Below are positions 9,085 through 62,811 of a stretch of 64,000 bases of DNA, one piece after another. This DNA comes from an uncultured Methanoregulaceae archaeon. Lineage in GTDB: Archaea > Halobacteriota > Methanomicrobia > Methanomicrobiales > Methanospirillaceae. The stretch spans positions 1 to 64,000 of the forward strand of contig CAWJAX010000003.1 in the NCBI GenBank assembly GCA_963841015.1. Reading direction: 5' to 3'. Positions within the stretch are counted from its first letter, which is position 1, and every line of letters begins with the position of its first letter. Position numbers and translations under genes: made by a program. The notes beneath the pieces are model-generated. The model did not search any database, was not told the origin of the DNA, and saw only the letters and a program-made list of their open reading frames with translations.

Positions 9085-9262
9085 TGAGGAAAATACCGAT
9101 TGAATAAGAAAATTCAGACCATTCTGGTTTTGGGTAATACAGCGTTATCGCATCGGGGGGATGCCCCAGTGGCGGGTGGCGGGAGGACAGCCCCCGAGAA
9201 CGTTTGAAATCTGGAAATAAAAAAAAATTCTTTGGAGGCGTTTTGCCAGATAGACAGAGGCA
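9085..9262 (-). repeat. Module C repeat (shares its head with module A)
   Basis: gttatcgcatcggggggatgcccc...cccccgagaacgttt; related to 23310-23480 and 29380-29470; boundaries approximate. Confidence 0.55.
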
Positions 9263-11483: not shown

Positions 11484-11685
11484 GGCTCTGGAGATCTGTT
11501 TCATGACAAGCTCAACGATTACGGGAGTATCATCACTGCCACGGGTCCTCTCCCGAATGCGATAACTCCTCAAAAAGTAATCATCGTTCCAAAAGCAGGA
11601 GTGAGATGGGGGACGAAGAGTGTCGCTTCCTCGGTCATGCCAGTGCTTTTTATTTCCTGCCCTTGTAAAGGATTTCTCCAGAGCC
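11484..11685 (+). mobile_element. MITE-like element, module A, 202 bp
   Basis: Perfect 11-bp TIR GGCTCTGGAGA/TCTCCAGAGCC; flanks TTTTTTTT and TGTTTTTT (7/8, low complexity). Confidence 0.8.
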
Positions 11686-11761: not shown

Positions 11762-13102
11762 TTAAAAACACAGCGGTGTAAGTTTCTCTATGACCCGCTC
11801 CACCTGCTGGACAGATGTCCCGATATAGGAATCCGGATTGAGGAGTGCAGCAATATCGGTCCGGGAACAGTAACGCAGCACTTCCGGATCTGCTCCCAGT
11901 ACCTCAGCAAGCGCCCGCTCTTCAACAAGGGCCTGCATACTTGCCATACGGATCCGCTCATGGGCATCCTGGCGGTTCATACCCCGCCGGGTGAGGTCGA
12001 TCATGACGGACTCGGCCATATTGATGCCATGGAGGAAAGCGAGATTACGGCGGATTGCTGCACGGTTGATGACGAGTCCTTCAAGTACGGTTGTCATGAG
12101 CCGGATACAGTGATCCGTGAGGATCGAAGCCTCAGGGAACAGCACCCGCTCGCAGGATGAGTTGGTCAGGTCACGCTCGTCCCAGAGTGTGTTGTTCTGG
12201 AGTGCCGGCTCGACCGCGGACCGCACGATGCGGGCAAGGCCACAGACCTGTTCTGACCTGATGGGATTGCGTTTATGCGGCATGGTGGAGGAGCCTACCT
12301 GATTTGCACCGAATGCTTCTTCCACCTCGCCAATCTCAGTCCGCTGAAGTGAGCGGATCTCAATGCCGATCTTGTCGAGCGTGGTTGCCACATTTGCACA
12401 GAACATGAAATATTCCGCATACCGGTCGCGGGAAATTACCTGATTGGATACGTCCACCGAGCCAATGCCAAGCACCTCCATCATCGTTGCCTGTATCTCC
12501 ATTGCCTTCGGACCGAGTGCCGCCTGGGTGCCCACAGCCCCGGTCATCTGCCCGACAACGACACGCGGACGGAGCTGTTCAAGGCGTTCGATGTGCCGCC
12601 CGATTTCACTTGCCCAGATGGCAAACCGCAGACCATACGTGGTCGGCACCCCGTGCTGCCCGTGGGTCCTGCCGATACAGACCAGCGATTTGGTTTCTTC
12701 TGATCTTTTTATGAGTACCTCAAGCAGGAGACGCAGCTTCTTATCGATGAGCGTGAGCGCCTGCTGGAGCTGCAGCCCGGTTGCGGTATCAAGGATATCG
12801 TTGCTCGTTGCGCCATAGTGGACCCATCGCCCGGAATCACCGCAGACCTCAGAGATCGCTTTTACCATAGCCATCATGTCATGGCTGATCTCGCGTTCGA
12901 TTATTTTTGCCCGCTCCAGCGATGCCTTCGGTGCAAACTGGCCTATTTCAGCTGCTGCACCTGCGGGAATCATGCCGTGCGCTGCTTCGGCTTTTGCCAG
13001 CGCAACTTCTACGGCAACAACACAGGAGAACCGGGTCTTCTCACTCCATACAGCACGCATCTCGGGCGTGCCGTACCGCTCCTCGATGGGGTGGACTGCC
13101 AT
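11762..13102 (-). CDS. purB: Adenylosuccinate lyase
   Basis: HYGATSNDI, GRTHGQH and the GSSTMPHKRNP signature. Confidence 0.97.
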   Translation of the reverse strand: MAVHPIEERYGTPEMRAVWSEKTRFSCVVAVEVALAKAEAAHGMIPAGAAAEIGQFAPKASLERAKIIEREISHDMMAMVKAISEVCGDSGRWVHYGATSNDILDTATGLQLQQALTLIDKKLRLLLEVLIKRSEETKSLVCIGRTHGQHGVPTTYGLRFAIWASEIGRHIERLEQLRPRVVVGQMTGAVGTQAALGPKAMEIQATMMEVLGIGSVDVSNQVISRDRYAEYFMFCANVATTLDKIGIEIRSLQRTEIGEVEEAFGANQVGSSTMPHKRNPIRSEQVCGLARIVRSAVEPALQNNTLWDERDLTNSSCERVLFPEASILTDHCIRLMTTVLEGLVINRAAIRRNLAFLHGINMAESVMIDLTRRGMNRQDAHERIRMASMQALVEERALAEVLGADPEVLRYCSRTDIAALLNPDSYIGTSVQQVERVIEKLTPLCF

Positions 13103-13198
13103 GAGAACTGATCTGTTGTTTATGGATATAGTGTTTCATGATCCGGTTTGAGAATCCTGCCGGCAGCAGTTCGTACTGATTTTTTTAAAGGAAGTTTC

Positions 13199-13634
13199 TG
13201 CTCTGTTGAAACGAGCATGAACTGATCGGGTTCACCCACAAACCATGAAAATCGTATTGTATACGATGGAACCTCGCCTCATGGCCTCACCGAGGCACGG
13301 CGGCCGGGGTTTTTTTTGAATTGTTTGTTCCAGATCCGCCGCGGGGTCGACCGTGTGCGGGGCGGCGGCTATCATCGTACATGGAGAAGTATGAAAAAAT
13401 CTCGTATCATACCTGAATAGTTCAATTTTCATGGGAAATGCTCAATTACAGCTAAACGCTCATGGGGGTTTTACCCCCGCCGCTGTGGCTGTCCTGATGC
13501 GATAACTCCCGAACAGGTGCTCCGTCATCATCTCTCAGCGCAGGGGCGGCATGGGGGGACAGGCTCATGTCCCCTCCTTCATTCGTACCAGCATCCTGAA
13601 TTTCATAGCAAGGGAAAAAGAATTCTCCAGAGCC
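13199..13634 (+). mobile_element. Composite MITE-like element (inverted module B + module A), 436 bp
   Basis: Ends TGCTCTG... and ...CTCCAGAGCC; perfect 8-bp direct repeat GAAGTTTC at 13191-13198 and 13635-13642. Confidence 0.88.
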
Positions 13635-14019
13635 GAAGTTTCAAAATACTATCTATTCTGGAGGAAAATCCTCTTTCAATAAATCCCTGTCATACATTAA
13701 CAGGACTTTACTCAAATCTTTGAAGAATTTTAATCTGATTTTTGCGCTTGATAGCTTTAATCCTGGTGCAGAATAGATTCCTTTTTGCTGCTGATTTACA
13801 AATTCCATAGTGTCTGTAGAGGAATTGCTGATTTAAAGCATACTGATGCTGTAAATTACAACTTCAGAATATTTTGAACACAAGAAAAACTTCAAAAATT
13901 CAGTACTATGTATCAGAAATGTAAAAAAAGAAATCCTGATACGATTCAACTTTGCGGTATGTGTCGGGTTAATGCTTTTTAGAATGGGATTAATAGAGCA
14001 TAGCACGGTGAAAAGTATC

Positions 14020-22561: not shown

Positions 22562-22622
22562 GGTCGTTCTGAATAGTCCCTCTGGTATGCAAGTATAAAA
22601 ATTCACGGGAAAAAGGGACGAG

Positions 22623-22694
22623 TGGACTGGGCGGGAATTGAACCCGCGGCCTCTCCCATGCCAAGGGAGCGATCTACCACTGATCTACCAGCCC
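22623..22694 (-). tRNA. tRNA-Ala(GGC)
   Basis: GGGCTGG...CCAGTCC-A with G3-U70; anticodon arm CTCCC-TT GGC AT-GGGAG. Confidence 0.96.
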
Positions 22695-22779: not shown

Positions 22780-22990
22780 TACCTGCGAATTATTCAGATA
22801 TATTGTAAGGGTTGTACCTTCTGTTTCAGGAACGATAAACTACCGCCACCCCCGAAAGGACGCCCCCCGCGGCGGTTCTTGACCTGAATCAAAAGAATTC
22901 CCTGCCCGCTGTGTCTCGGAGAGGCCCTGAAGCGGAGGCTCATCGTGTGAAGGACATTTTTATGGTACGGCTATGAACTGAATCAACTTA
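22780..22990 (+). repeat. Module B repeat
   Basis: tattcagatat...ccgccacccccgaaaggacgcc...ccctgcccgc...gagaggcc...tttttatggt; colinear with the 47110-47345 and 50288-50505 copies. Confidence 0.75.
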
Positions 22991-22995
22991 TTTTG

Positions 22996-23221
22996 GGGTC
23001 TGCAGAAGAGATTTTTTGGATGTTTTGACTTCCTTTTATTATTTAACAAATTACTGAAACGATGATGGAGGGGACAGTGCCTGACCCCCCAACACCCCCT
23101 GCGCTTAGAGCGATGATGGTGTATTACCTGTTCTGGAGTTATAGCATTTAGGGGAACTGCTACGGTGGGGGTTGAACCCCCGTGAGCGGTCAGATTTTTA
23201 AAGTTTTTTTTGTATAGAGCC
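22996..23221 (-). mobile_element. MITE-like element, module A (inverted)
   Basis: Ends GGGTCTGCAGAA and TATAGAGCC; internal gggggttgaaccccc and ggggacagtgcctgacccc hairpins; no clean TSD. Confidence 0.75.
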
Positions 23222-23309
23222 ATTTTAACTACTAACTCGTAAAGGAAATAACAAGAAAAAATTGAGTCAGAATAGTGTTCCAGAATTCAGATAGAAAAAG
23301 TGTTCCTGT

Positions 23310-23480
23310 TCAGGAACCAAAAACGCAGACGCTCCAGGGGCTTCGCCCCGCCACTATGGCGCCCCGGTTGCGATGGTGTTGTATAACCAGGGATCATGAA
23401 TACCGGTAATTCAGATGAATCGCATGCGCCCCCACCCCCGAAAGGGGGCAGGGCTGGCGCAAGGGGGGCATTCAATAAAA
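23310..23480 (+). repeat. Module C repeat
   Basis: acgctccaggggcttcgccccgccact...gcgat...cccccgaaggggg-type hairpins; related to 9085-9262. Confidence 0.6.
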
Positions 23481-23524
23481 AAAGAAATTAGTCGCTGAGA
23501 TGTGAATATACCCAATTTTTTTGT

Positions 23525-23750
23525 ATATTATTCAGATCTGATGCAAAAATGTAACCACTTCATGCATCCTGCAGATGATTACCACCGCCCCGGAGTGTCC
23601 CCGCAACGGATTGGTGTGGAATAAATCCAATAAAAATTTCCTCTTCATCGCGCCTCTGAGAAATCCTGAATCGGGAGTTCTTGTGTTGAGCGGACGATTT
23701 TTCATCTTTCGGATATGAACCGAAATTGATTCATGCCTGTTTCCTAAAAC
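23525..23750 (+). repeat. Module B repeat
   Basis: tattcagatctgatg...ccaccgccc...gcctctgaga...cggacgatttttcat...gattcat; abuts the pncB stop. Confidence 0.7.
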
Positions 23751-28514: not shown

Positions 28515-28726
28515 AGGCAACCATCGACCGGATAGAAGGACCCATTGCCGTATTGATCTCACGCGAAGATGAATCAGTACGGGTGGATCTTCCTGTTTCA
28601 CTGCTCCCCCCAGGTTGCCGGGAAGGGGATATACTCATGATCCGGATCGAACGGGATAGGGCGGCAACTGAGGCTGCTCAGGAACGGGTAGCGGGTCTTA
28701 TTGAAAAACTGAAAAAACGGAAATAA
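28511..28726 (+). CDS. DUF3006-family protein
   Basis: IDRIEG.IAV, LLPPGCREGD; overlaps the upstream stop (ATGA). Confidence 0.85.
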   Translation: MKATIDRIEGPIAVLISREDESVRVDLPVSLLPPGCREGDILMIRIERDRAATEAAQERVAGLIEKLKKRK

Positions 28727-28727
28727 G

Positions 28728-28917
28728 GTACGATGAAGAAGGGGGAGGTGCCTGTCTCTCCACAACACCTCAGCAGATAGAGCGATAAATCTGCATTCCT
28801 TTTTTGAGTGGATTTCGCATTTTTTGAGGAGCACAAAGTTGTGAGGATCAAACTTACGGTGAGCATTTAGATTGTTATTGAATATTTCCTATGAAACACG
28901 TAATCTTCAGATATTTT
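28728..28917 (-). mobile_element. Older composite element, left part: inverted module A plus head of module B
   Basis: tacgatgaagaaggggg...gcctgtc...gagcatttag...tttcctatgaaa...ttcagatatttt matches the A/B junction at 47075-47135. Confidence 0.65.
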
Positions 28918-29127
28918 TGCTCTGGAGAAATATTCAATTACATGCTAAACGCTCAAGGGGGTTTCACCCCCTCCACGGGGGGTCCCCCGATGCGATAACT
29001 CCCGAACAGGTGCTACCTCATCATCGCTCAGCGCAGGGGCGGCATGGGGGGACAGGCTCATGTTCACTCCTTCATTCGTACCAGCATCCTGAATTTCATA
29101 TCAAGGAAAAAGAAATTCTACAGAGCC
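28918..29127 (+). mobile_element. MITE-like element, module A, 210 bp, nested insertion
   Basis: TIR TGCTCTGGAGAA/TTCTACAGAGCC; perfect 8-bp TSD GATATTTT at 28910-28917 and 29128-29135; near-identical to 13430-13634. Confidence 0.9.
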
Positions 29128-29135
29128 GATATTTT

Positions 29136-29343
29136 GGGAGATAGTCCATCTTCTACCATTGCGATGAAGGCCGCTGTCCCTGATGGGACGCCCCCGCGGC
29201 TGTTTAAGTGACTATACCCTGCTGAAACCTTCCTACCTCGCCGTGCCTCTGAGAGGCCCCTGGGCGGGAGTCCTTCGTGGAACGGACGATTTTCATGGTT
29301 TGGATGTGAACCGGATCGATTCATTTCTGGTTCTCCGGGAGGC
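29136..29343 (+). repeat. Remainder of the interrupted module B
   Basis: gccgctgtccc...gacgccccc...gccgtgcctctgagaggcc...gacgattttcatggtt...gattcat. Confidence 0.75.
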
Positions 29344-29379
29344 AAATCTTCTGTACACAATAGTTTATTTGATGGATAT

Positions 29380-29470
29380 CACCCACGCAGGGCTTTGAGC
29401 AAAGTCTCCGCTCCGCCATTGTTGCAACTCCCTCAATGCGAGAGTCCTGCATAAAGGGTCCGCCACACCA
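29380..29470 (+). repeat. Decayed module C-like repeat
   Basis: ccgccattgttgcaactccctcaatgcga resembles the C-module core. Confidence 0.35.
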
Positions 29471-29591
29471 AAAGATGATGTCTGAAAATCAGAATTTTTT
29501 TTAATTTTGTTTTCGTTCCGATTTTCTCTTTAAAAAAATGTCATCATGAGAATAAAAAAATTCATGGCGAGATTGGTACTACCAAAAAAAA

Positions 29592-33011: not shown

Positions 33012-33276
33012 GAAGTAACGGTTACCCGGTTCAAAGAGAGAATGAAGTCCAGACAAACGTCTATCTGATTCAGCTCACTACGCCATTTGAGGAATTGCTG
33101 ACAGTTGCCATAAATGATACCACCAACGCACTCTTTATCACAGGTATCACAGGGTTTCTCTGTCATCAATCTACATTTAGCCGATTATTGATTTAATATT
33201 CATGTGATTTTTCAGGTTATATCATGTAACCGCATGGTTAGCAAAAAAAGTCCTGGTACAGGCCCGCCATTGACCG

Positions 33277-35504
33277 TTAACGTTTCCACCAGCTTCGTAA
33301 GAGGAGAACTCCAATCCCAATCCCTAATACTCCCATGGTGCTGATGACAAGAGGCAGAAAAGAAAATCCAGTATTCGATTCGTCCGGTGCGGTTTTCACT
33401 GGAATATCTGGAATGACTGAAATGTTCGATTCCCATGAATTTATATCCGGAACTCATTTCCGATACCGTTGATGGAGCAGGCATATTATTGGGTAAAGCG
33501 ATGGAGGTCTCATTCCGAATAGTGATGGCAAAAAGGGAGAATTCCGGACTCTCTGCACGATACAGCGCATTACCGTTTTTCCTACCTGTCATGGTGGTAG
33601 GAAGGCATATCCAGGTTCTGTTATTGAGCATGCACAGGCTGACATTTCTCAATGACTCAGGAGGGTCAGGTATTGAAAAAAGAGGCACATCAAATTCTAT
33701 CAGTACCGATGAAATGGCCGAGTAGCGTGCAGGGATGACATCAATGTACTGGTAAACCGGCTTATCCGGCGGTGCAATACCTGATGGTAAAGAGGGAAGT
33801 ATTGTTGCGGTAACAATAATATCAGCAATATCCTGCCCGTGTACAGTGACGTGACTGATTGCGGAATTCCCTCCAACATTCACCGTCTGGCAAGCTGGCG
33901 ATCCCGCGAGCCGAAGCACAGGTGTTAATGATGGCACCGGAAGTTGGTCATCATTACTTCCTGAACCTTCAAATGCGGCTGGTGTCTGACGCATTGATGA
34001 TGTGAGGGTAGGTGCCGGGGATAAAGTGACGGTAGGTGTAGGTAAGAAGGTAAGAGTAGGTGTAGGTAAGAAAGTAAGAGTAGGTGTAGGTGAGGAGGTA
34101 AGGGTAGGGGTTGGCGACGAAGAAATTGTCGGTGTGGGTGAAGGGGTCGGCACCGTAGTTTCCGGGGGTGCGACAACCGTAATGTAATCTGAACGACCCA
34201 GATTACTTGCGACACCGAAATTCAGAACAGTCAGATTCACATTGTATGTCCCGTGTGTTTCGTATACATGAGACGGATTCCGCAAAGCGATCACGCTGGT
34301 ATTAAACCATGTGCCATCGCCAAATGACCAGTTCCAACCGGCGGGAGATCCCCCCCTGGAAGTGTCTGAAAACTGCACGGTAAGCGGTGCAGTACCATTC
34401 TGTGGTGAAGCGGTAAAATTCAGCAGCAACGGGGGAATGCCAATGGCATATTTGAGGTTACCATTCCCTCCGTCACGGTAACTTATCCGTGGAATCCCTT
34501 CACTATTTAGCGCAAGTGATGAATACTCTCCAACATTCACCGCAGTATCAACGGTTTCGGTTGTCCAGATCGAGCCTGTTTTTGTTGCATATTTCAGACG
34601 ACCATTGGTCTCATCGAAATAACTGATATGGGGATTTCCCGAACTGTCGAGTGCTAGTGAGGTGAACTTCCCGGCCCTTCCGGGGGCGTCTACAATCTCT
34701 TTTATCCATGAGCTTCCTTTTTTTGTCGCATACTTCAGATCCCAGTTCGTGAAATCGTAATAACTGATGTGTGGATTTCCCGTATCATCAAGTGCGATCG
34801 ATGTATAATAACCGACATTTCCGGTACTGTCTACGGTCTGATTGGTCCAGTTCCCCCCGCTCTTTACTGCATATTTCAGATCCCCTTTTGTGCCATCATA
34901 ATAACTGATGTGCGGATTACCGCTGCTATCCAGTGCAAGAGATGAGTAGGCACCAACATTCCCCGCATTGTCCACAGTTTCATGGTTCCATATACCCCCG
35001 CTCTTTGCGGTATATTTCAGTTTCGCATTGATAAGATCCTGGTAACAGATCCGCGGATTTCCTGATCCATCGAGCGCAAGTGACGTATATCTCCCGACAC
35101 CTCCGCTATCTACCACTACGGTGCTCCAGCTGGTTCCGGTTTTCATTGCAAAGGACAGATTTCCACGGTTCCCATCGTAGTAACTTATCAGGGGATGGAA
35201 AGATGCATCAAGTTTCAATGAGGAAAACTCCCCCACAGCGTTGGTTGAATCCGCGGTTTCATTGATCCACTGCCCATTATCTCTGGTTGCATATTTCAAA
35301 TGACGGTTCGTCCAGTCCAGATAGACTTATACGGGGGTTTCCCGAATTATCAAGTGCAAGTGATGTATACCATCCTACGTTCCCCGGGCTGTCAACCGTT
35401 TCAGTTGTCCAGTCCAACGCGGTCACCGGGGATACCAGTACCAGGAAAAATATTGTTTTTACTGCAACGATAATAATCGTCGGTACAGGATTTTTAACTC
35501 TCAT
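33277..35504 (-). CDS. Cell-surface protein: beta-propeller repeats, PKD, PT-rich linker, PGF-pre-PGF-like domain, C-terminal TM anchor (frameshifts at ~35324 and ~33433)
   Basis: Signal peptide; seven ~46-aa W..ETVD..G.VG.Y.SLALD..G.P.ISY repeats; WNWSFGDG; FSLFAI; shifted frame ends ...LGIGIGVLLLRSWWKR*. Confidence 0.8.
34005..34150. repeat. 24-bp coding tandem repeat (PTPTLTxx)
   Basis: gtaagagtaggtgtaggtaagaa units, about 5-6 degenerate copies. Confidence 0.8.
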
Positions 35505-46944: not shown

Positions 46945-47345
46945 GATATATGAAGGAGGGCGCAGTGCCTGTCCACTTTTACTGCCCCAGCGCTCAAGAA
47001 GCGATGATGACGAATTATCTGTTCAGGAGTCAGAGCATTCGGGGAAGCCAAAGCGGCGGGCATGAAACCTCTGTTAAGCGTTTTGCTTTTTCATTGAGCA
47101 TTTCCCTATGAAAATCGTAGTATTCGGATATGATGCGGGGATTGTTACCCCTCTGTCCATTAGTTACGATGTATGCCGCCGCCCTTGACCGGGCGCCCCC
47201 GGGGCGGATCGTTGACTGAAATGGAAAAAAACACTTCATGCCCGCCGTGCCTTAGAGAGGTCATAAGTCAGGTGTCCTTTGTATTGGGAATGATTTTCAT
47301 GGATCGGTGTGACCCAACTCGATTCATATCAGTTACTGCAGAGCC
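46945..47345 (-). mobile_element. Composite element (module A + module B), inverted relative to 13199-13634
   Basis: Same A/B junction (agcgttt..ttgagcatttccc.atgaaaat..tattc.g.tatgat); right end CTGCAGAGCC; left end eroded. Confidence 0.78.
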
Positions 47346-50287: not shown

Positions 50288-50505
50288 GGGAAATAGTAGT
50301 TTTCAGATTTTATGTGGGGATTGTTACCCGTCTAATCATTCATCATGATTATTGCCACAGCCCCCGAAAGGGCGCACCCGCTGCGGTTCGGCGAGTGAAA
50401 ATTTGAAAATCCCTGCCCGCCATGCCCGGGAGAGGCCAGGAACCCGTAGTCATTCGTTTAATGACGATTTTCATGGTTCAGGGTGTGAATCAATTCGGTT
50501 TGGGT
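50288..50505 (+). repeat. Module B repeat
   Basis: gaaatagtagttttcaga...ggggattgttaccc...cccccgaaagggcg...gagaggcc...gacgattttcatggtt. Confidence 0.78.
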
Positions 50506-53753: not shown

Positions 53754-53789
53754 ACGTCGAAATGTATTGATAAAGGAATTATCAGGAAA

Positions 53790-53849
53790 AACCAACGGTT
53801 ATTCATCATGTTTGCTGAGTCCGCGACTCATGTACGGTTCTCCAGAGTC
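53790..53849 (+). repeat. Tail fragment of module B with TIR
   Basis: gactcat...TTCTCCAGAGTC (11/12 match to the TIR). Confidence 0.45.
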
Positions 53850-62518: not shown

Positions 62519-62602
62519 AGAAACGCACATGAATCGGTTCACACCGGAACAATGAAAATCGTCCTCTTTGCAAGAAGGCAGAGTGTTGTTTTGAATTTTT
62601 TA

Positions 62603-62811
62603 GGATCTGCAGAATTACGTTTTCTATGATGCATGTTACAAAGCAATGGGACACGAAGGAGGGTGCAGTTCCTGTCCCCCCAGTCCGCTGCGTTCAAGAC
62701 CGATGATGGCGCATTCCCTGTTCTGGTAATATCGCATTTTGAGGATATGAAAATGAGAGAGTGTAATTCCTATCATACACTTTCCTGATTACTGGGCATT
62801 TCTCCAAATCA
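62603..62811 (-). mobile_element. Decayed MITE-like module A (inverted)
   Basis: Ends GGATCTGCAGAA and TTCTCCAAATCA; internal gaaggaggg..cctgtcccc..cgatgatgg..cctgttc..tatcgcat. Confidence 0.65.

Follow-up and report, generated by a model that had tools for sequence, protein, structure and literature searches.

A Methanoregula MITE family with composite members that shares its ends with a co-resident IS5-family insertion sequence

The MITEs nearest in kind to those described here are the IS5-family-derived elements of methanogenic archaea listed by Kamoun et al. 2013 (PMC3852290, Table 4), whose partner insertion sequences (ISs) include, for example, ISMac15, ISMma12, ISMba19, and ISMbu10. 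They are short, non-coding, and multi-copy, and have 15–17-bp inverted ends that match IS5-family ISs of their own genome; in these traits they resemble the present family. As listed in that table, they occur in Methanosarcinales, measure 140–252 bp, and carry duplications of 0–3 bp, whereas the family described here resides in Methanoregula, makes 8-bp duplications, reaches ~160 loci in one genome, and has a two-part build, the two being set apart by description only. IS5-derived MITEs of methanogens are, as a kind, already in print (PMC3852290), and what is newly defined here is the particular pair of IS and MITE. The MITEs of Sulfolobus, Halobacterium, and Haloquadratum, covered in a 2024 review (PMC10969869), are likewise IS-dependent miniature elements with terminal inverted repeats (TIRs) and target-site duplications (TSDs) and are mostly intergenic, but they belong to other IS families and hosts. 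The review's account of archaeal MITEs names no member of the Methanomicrobiales. We found no relevant publication on MITEs in Methanoregula; the family may be listed in the supplements of a large automated survey of archaeal MITEs (bioRxiv 10.1101/2024.01.18.576219).

In an earlier note, made from the sequence alone, the locus had been likened to the REP/BIME mosaics of enterobacteria, with which it has in common a high copy number, an intergenic position, a wealth of hairpins, and a mosaic look. REP/BIME elements are not known to carry TIRs or TSDs, and their spread relies on RAYT transposases of the Y1 type. The present family has both TIRs and TSDs, and a Y1 transposase was not found in its own genome, so that the analogy does not hold beyond appearance. 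Chimeric non-autonomous elements that arise by abortive gap repair or template switching, a eukaryotic mechanism, are known as maize Ds and P-element derivatives. These share with our family unrelated interiors between conserved ends and joints with a few bases of microhomology, the difference being that gap repair is here suggested by a single trait, the GAA(A) microhomology at the junctions.

The window analyzed here is a 64-kb stretch (C3:1–64000) of a genome of five contigs, 2.28 Mb, and 48% GC that is 94% complete; coordinates prefixed C2, C3, and C5 refer to contigs of this genome. Two copies of GAAGTTTC, both read directly and as previously described, enclose a 436-bp segment whose first bases are TGCTCTG and whose last bases are CAGAGCC. 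The parts of the segment, in window coordinates, are as follows.

13191–13198, no strand: left target-site duplication, GAAGTTTC, identical to 13635–13642
13199–13634, plus strand: composite MITE, 436 bp, consisting of a B cassette and an A core; full-length copies elsewhere have their own TSDs
13199–13211, plus strand: left TIR, TGCTCTGTTGAAA, family consensus GGCTCTG(T/G)AGAAA (sequence reading, motif count)
13212–13434, plus strand: body of end cassette B (nhmmer B match at 13216–13431, fold, junction census)
13435–13634, plus strand: core A, extending from base 10 of an A-type left end (GAAATGCTCAA) through the right TIR of A (blastn, query 237–436)
13622–13634, minus strand: right TIR, reading inward GGCTCTGGAGAAT (sequence reading, metagenome loose ends)
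13635–13642, no strand: right target-site duplication, GAAGTTTC (sequence reading)

The composite thus consists of a 236-bp end cassette B (query 1–236) and a 200-bp core A (query 237–436). The B body contains two GC-rich hairpins, one of them followed by a T-run, and its tail, TTTTCATGG (13426–13434), pairs with CCATGAAAA near the start of B; A, like B, bears GC-rich hairpins. When the 436 bp were compared with their own genome by blastn, 110 HSPs were obtained, and no other copy in the genome was more than 90.7% identical to the one in the window. The two parts also occur separately. The A part is found solitary at ~30 loci, where it is preceded by TGCTCTGNA, and the sum of TGCTCTGNA and A is a complete element of 207–212 bp with inverted ends and 8-bp flanking repeats; query 1–236 likewise occurs on its own. 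Full-length copies of 431–444 bp lie at other loci with flanking repeats of their own. Besides the window copy, the full-length composites at C2:474884, C2:576771, and C3:465040 have a perfect TSD, and those at C3:478418 and C3:517961 have a TSD with seven of eight positions matching. Among the 12 composites with both TIRs, six show no more than one mismatch between their TSD copies, and the TSD differs from case to case. Because these six carry their own, differing TSDs, the B+A form transposes as one unit, as the earlier note had proposed; the 436-bp segment was moved whole.

Iterated nhmmer profiles were used for a genome-wide census, in which C stands for a short end cassette that is an internal-deletion form of B and is distinct from the “module C” of the earlier note. 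The profiles matched A 134 times, B 62 times, and C 9 times; together the matches group into 158 loci and cover 30,179 bp, or 1.3% of the genome. A alone accounts for 92 loci and B alone for 24; the combined architectures are B>A> (22 loci), A>B< (5 loci), A>C< (4 loci), and B>A>C< (3 loci), with other arrangements at the remaining 8 loci. Both TIRs, defined by at most two mismatches in 10 scored positions, are kept at 49 of the 158 loci, one is lacking at 57, and both are lacking at 52; since 109 loci are thus without one or both TIRs, most copies are old and immobile. The 49 loci with both TIRs include 13 with a perfect 8-bp TSD and 10 with a TSD matching at seven of eight positions, that is, 23/49 with no more than one mismatch, compared with 1/49 in an offset control in which the 8-mers were taken 10 bp further out. 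The end motif GCTCTGNAGAA has 66 exact matches in the genome versus 6, 2, and 3 in three block shuffles. The ends of the family read GGCTCTGNAGAA(A/T)T, and the duplicated target sites are A/T-rich.

These numbers agree with the former description of a high-copy, non-autonomous system bounded by TIRs and 8-bp duplications. The statement that all pieces are intergenic, made for the window, is borne out genome-wide: only 625 of the 30,179 module bases (2.1%) lie within crude genes (ORFs of at least 150 aa), which cover 75.8% of the genome. The elements measure 202–212 bp or 431–445 bp and have no conserved coding capacity. A conserved small ORF in B was considered and ruled out, as the sole long frame in B is not conserved when 41 copies are compared.

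Within the window, the profiles gave 18 module matches. They include the four places where A (11484, ~22996, 28918, and ~62603) and the six where B (22780, 23525, 29136, 30340, 47110, and 50288) had been noted earlier. Apart from the composite at 13199–13634, the window holds the following family members.

11484–11685, plus strand: divergent A-type MITE, 202 bp, both TIRs, TSD TTTTTTTT/TGTTTTTT (seven of eight)
28918–29127, plus strand: A-type MITE, 210 bp, perfect TSD GATATTTT, inside an older B cassette
28718–29324, minus strand: old, decayed B+A composite (A at 28718–28873; B at 28880–28917 and 29136–29324), split by the younger A
46949–47327, minus strand: decayed B+A composite (blastn and nhmmer)
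22787–23735, minus strand: decayed cluster beside a tRNA-Ala gene, with B at 22787–22990, A at 23046–23196, and B at 23526–23735, and an unrelated 302-bp repeat among them
50290–50500, minus strand: solitary decayed B cassette with a degraded TIR (nhmmer)
62529–62743, no overall strand: B fragment (62529–62573, plus) and A fragment (62621–62743, minus) (nhmmer)
53783–53836, minus strand: short end cassette C, the internal-deletion form of B (nhmmer)

The A element at 28918–29127 is direct evidence of insertion. When this element and one copy of its TSD were removed in silico, the B profile aligned unbroken across the site, with 137.9 bits as compared with 131.4 bits for the filled state; the nested site thereby acts as a paralogous empty site.

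The absence of a transposase, one of the features noted earlier, holds for the window and fails for the genome. A scan of the own genome for pairs of family TIRs up to 3 kb apart revealed three elements of 1007 bp, each flanked by a perfect 8-bp TSD, at C2:353343, C3:194783, and C5:79673, which encode a DDE transposase. The only other long pairs were two with one mismatch, 2.5–3 kb in length, which have in common a left end located in GC-rich sequence. The protein matches the Pfam family DDE_Tnp_1 (PF01609; 6.6e-24, 85 bits, cut-off 23) and the NCBIfam model transpos_IS5_2 (NF033579; 217 bits, cut-off 140), and its close relatives are titled “IS5 family transposase [Methanoregula sp.]” in the sources. 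ISL3, IS6, and IS1595 models, the families to which the ends had been attributed, are absent among its NCBIfam matches. The copies at C3:194783–195789 and C5:79673–80679 differ at one position in 1007 nt, which points to recent transposition, and the C2 copy is 87% identical to both. The open frames of the three copies are 305, 325, and 392 aa long. Within the element the transposase frame meets no stop codon, and it reads through the right end into the flank, so that the C terminus of the protein depends on the flanking sequence.

The IS5 family has a subgroup with 8-bp duplications, the ISH1 group, a trait given in ISfinder. The 1007-bp IS resembles this group, by that trait, in having a single DDE_Tnp_1 transposase, a length of ~1 kb, short TIRs, and 8-bp TSDs, and is set apart from it by the frame that lacks an internal stop and runs through the right end. 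The 8-bp TSDs were seen in 3/3 copies in the own genome and, in perfect form and together with GGCTCTGTAGAA ends and a length of ~1 kb, in 32 of 80 examined loci of related ISs. The loci come from Methanoregula (75–89% protein identity) and from Methanolobus, Methanosarcina, Methanococcoides, and others (~47–60%). None of these 80 loci contains a convincing A or B cassette within the IS. A related Methanoregulaceae copy (L030:1394–2476) has a right end that resembles an A-type left end, 64 positions of the A profile being matched; it is possibly an IS–MITE chimera or a nested insertion.

The two ends of the IS differ beyond position 12, one beginning GAAATGCT and the other GAATTCCT, and this asymmetry is kept in the MITEs: over the first 17 bases of each end, the A consensus agrees with the IS at 16 positions, on the left and on the right alike. 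Beyond the ends, the interiors of the MITEs have no similarity to the interior of the IS. At the level of sequence, the basic element of the family is the ~209-bp A form, whose ends copy the two unlike ends of the IS. The 436-bp segment is very probably a MITE from a family that is genus-wide in Methanoregula, a non-autonomous DNA transposon mobilized in trans by the DDE transposase of the co-resident 1007-bp IS. From the shared ends, the transposase is predicted to act in trans. By analogy with DDE elements of the IS5 family, it would recognize the 13–18-bp TIRs (GGCTCTGNAGAAA...) and cut at their tips, the tips would be joined to A/T-rich intergenic DNA that is cut with an 8-bp stagger, and repair of the stagger would leave the 8-bp duplication. 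The MITEs appear to be selfish.

Methanoregula is an environmentally important methanogen of peat and freshwater that is mostly represented by metagenome bins, and it gains here an IS/MITE pair defined by exact ends, duplication length, and a copy census. The pair is useful for annotation, because spurious ORFs overlap the MITEs, and for assembly and binning, since word depth over the elements rises to several hundred-fold in metagenomes. Individual copies also supply strain markers. The arrangement with an end cassette is mildly unusual, and the two-part build provides a modest case study of chimeric MITE formation rather than a new class of element.

Filled and empty versions of the same site had been called for as a check, and at the level of strains the comparison gave nothing for the 436-bp copy, the nested A at 28918–29127 being the instance that was found. 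No such polymorphism for the 436-bp copy appeared in the closest genome, in the own genome, or in four metagenome runs. In the closest genome (G017), no orthologous empty site was found; the alignment ends at ~13165, and synteny is gone ~34 bp before the site. When 33 loci with a TSD (at most two mismatches) were emptied in silico, none had a paralogous match in the own genome. The four runs of metagenome contigs, compared with the window between 9300 and 22700, contained no contig joint that skips 13199–13634, where uncovered parts count neither way. A 30-nt pattern from the left flank had no match in the metagenomes, and a 20-nt flank pattern had four, which we take as chance matches because these loci have no BLAST similarity to the window.

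The metagenomes nevertheless mark the borders of the element in other copies. Loose ends of contigs fall exactly at 13634/13635 in three runs, and a loose end at 13435 carries GGCTCTGGA. Relative to most flanking bins, word depth over the 436-bp element is ~5- to 25-fold in the four runs. Joints from 11481 to 11762/11763, which skip 280/281 bp (sides 25–42), were found in three of the four runs (X1, X2, and X10). The skipped stretch takes in the 202-bp MITE at 11484–11685 and 76 bp more; because the borders of the MITE are not matched, this is no clean empty site, and it may represent an intergenic region that was replaced in other strains.

Matches to the MITEs were found in 22 of 24 other genomes of the same genus; of 16 genomes that belong to other genera in the order, 2 had matches. 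G017 contains a B+A composite that is 84% identical to ours. In another species of the genus (G007), B joins a different core at a ...TTTTCATGG|GAAAT junction or flanks this core on both sides, with 8-bp TSDs. Relatives of the transposase at E<=1e-40 are present in 13 of the 24 same-genus genomes, and none was found at this threshold in the MITE-rich G007 (63% complete) and G017 (56% complete). This leaves two readings, namely orphan MITEs in some lineages or an IS that is missing from the assemblies.

In every composite, the outer end positions 1–13 (GGCTCTGNAGAAA) are followed by the B body, which closes with TTTTCATGG, and then by A from position 10, an order that implies that B takes the place of just the outermost nine bases at one end of A. 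In other words, the 223-bp cassette is preceded by TIR positions 1–13 and followed once more by the TIR from position 10 on, and GAA(A) stands on both sides of B because positions 10–13 are repeated after it. The outer 13 bases of the TIR are intact in the 436-bp form. The A portion after B begins either with GAAATGCTCAA, which is the left interior of A, or with GAATTCC, which is the right interior. Among 39 inner-end matches of B, a strict motif shows 15 joined to the left interior, to which several near-matches can be added by eye. A loose motif flags five B matches as joined to the right interior; one of these (29106) is an artefact of the nested A, and another is doubtful by eye. All 48 outer-end matches of B adjoin an end, which is a TIR with at most two mismatches in 30 cases and decayed TIR-like sequence in 18, so that B is never free of an end. 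Cassette C has the head of B (GAAACGnnCATGA...) and its tail (TGAATA...TTTTCATGG) and is read as an internal deletion of B because these are common to both and the ~170 bp between them are missing.

One composite departs from this pattern. In the 454-bp copy at C3:344587–345040, whose outer TSD matches at seven of eight positions, a complete inner A TIR directly follows the ...GAAATG of B, and a deletion between its two GAAATG repeats would yield the standard junction. The copy is possibly an intermediate of the B+A fusion; it fits fusion followed by deletion, and a secondary event is also conceivable.

Taken as a whole, the junctions are of two types, each of them uniform, as a small number of fusions with later amplification would leave them; the continuing free shuffling of cassettes that the earlier note had envisaged is not supported. 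The modularity of the family is real and is consistent with a small number of old joining events at the GAA(A) microhomology within the inverted end, whose products were later amplified, in part deleted, and degraded. As to how the fusions came about, we tentatively suggest that the B/A joints might have formed a few times at GAA(A), either through microhomology-mediated joining or through template switching, as when an excision gap is repaired; insertion into the end is another candidate route. The joints would later have been amplified, in part deleted (C would be the outcome of an internal deletion in B), and allowed to decay.

A more dynamic version of this history is that B is a portable sub-terminal module that has moved repeatedly between the ends of different MITE cores via the conserved GAA(A) joint, by targeted insertion or by template switching during excision-gap repair in a polyploid archaeon. 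The cores in question would be A here and another core in G007; we consider this idea rather unlikely. If it were true, such ends would be a natural birthplace of chimeric MITEs, and B would be kept by a benefit to the element or to the host, for example as a transcription stop.

B could instead be a second, independent mobile element that parasitizes the MITE by inserting, with site and orientation specificity, in the inverted end of the first family and duplicating GAA(A). The GAA(A) bracketing both sides of B would then be its duplication, and B does have an inverted repeat of its own of 9–10 bp, CCATGAAAA(T)/(A)TTTTCATGG, occupies the symmetrical position at either end of A, and stands beside different cores in other species. 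This repeat, however, encloses only the inner ~190 bp and not the whole insert, and 0 of the 48 outer-end matches place B away from TIR-like sequence. The junctions are uniform per type, as expected from one or two events followed by amplification, and we know of no candidate enzyme for independent mobility of B. We regard a separate B element as improbable.

The structured interiors raise the question of whether the modules are primarily functional RNAs or regulatory DNA (terminators or small RNAs) that spread between genes, their inverted ends being incidental. The 436-bp element does fold better than shuffled versions of itself (z = -2.5 for the plus strand and -3.3 for the minus strand), B has GC-rich hairpins, one with a T-run after it, and the hairpin sequences persist across species at ~68–78% identity. 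Compensatory changes do not exceed those in slid-partner controls, with 94 versus 89–105 in B and 90 versus 119–136 in A, and departures from pairing are mostly single pair-breaking changes. The T-run after the B hairpin is not kept in G007. RNAalifold predicted almost nothing on the gappy B alignment, and Rfam gave no match at E<=1 for 13100–13750 on either strand. As the dispersal of the modules is already explained by TIRs and TSDs, a primary function as RNA or regulatory DNA seems very unlikely. Mobilization by an ISL3-, IS6-, or IS1595-type transposase, to which GG(C/T)TCT-type ends and 8-bp duplications bear a resemblance, or REP/BIME-like spread by a Y1 (RAYT) transposase is scarcely credible, given three coding-sized elements with family ends and perfect TSDs that encode an IS5-family protein, TIRs and TSDs that REP/BIME elements are not known to have, and 0 matches to PF01797 (Y1_Tnp) in the 94%-complete genome where control genomes were positive.

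Several other repeats lie close to the MITEs in the window. What had been described as a “module C” sharing the head of A, at 9085, 23310, and 29380, resolves into three different low-copy repeats with 4, 7, and 4 further copies, respectively, which have no matches to one another; two of them match A weakly (best E 0.02). The repeats at 9106–9234 and 29344–29567 are intergenic, have four other copies each at 67–77% identity, and are unrelated to each other and to the MITE family. The 302-bp repeat at 23212–23513 has seven further copies with 82–90% identity and is likewise unrelated to the MITEs; it has inverted ends of its own, about GGTATAG... / ...TATACCC, and three of its eight copies lie within ~25 bp of a member of the main MITE family. 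The tRNA-Ala gene (22622–22694, minus strand) is directly adjoined by four decayed repeat modules, a pile-up that suggests a favored landing zone. Elsewhere in the window, five to six tandem 24-bp units at 34002–34145 lie within a 695-aa ORF on the minus strand (33212–35299), which probably encodes a repeat-containing protein.
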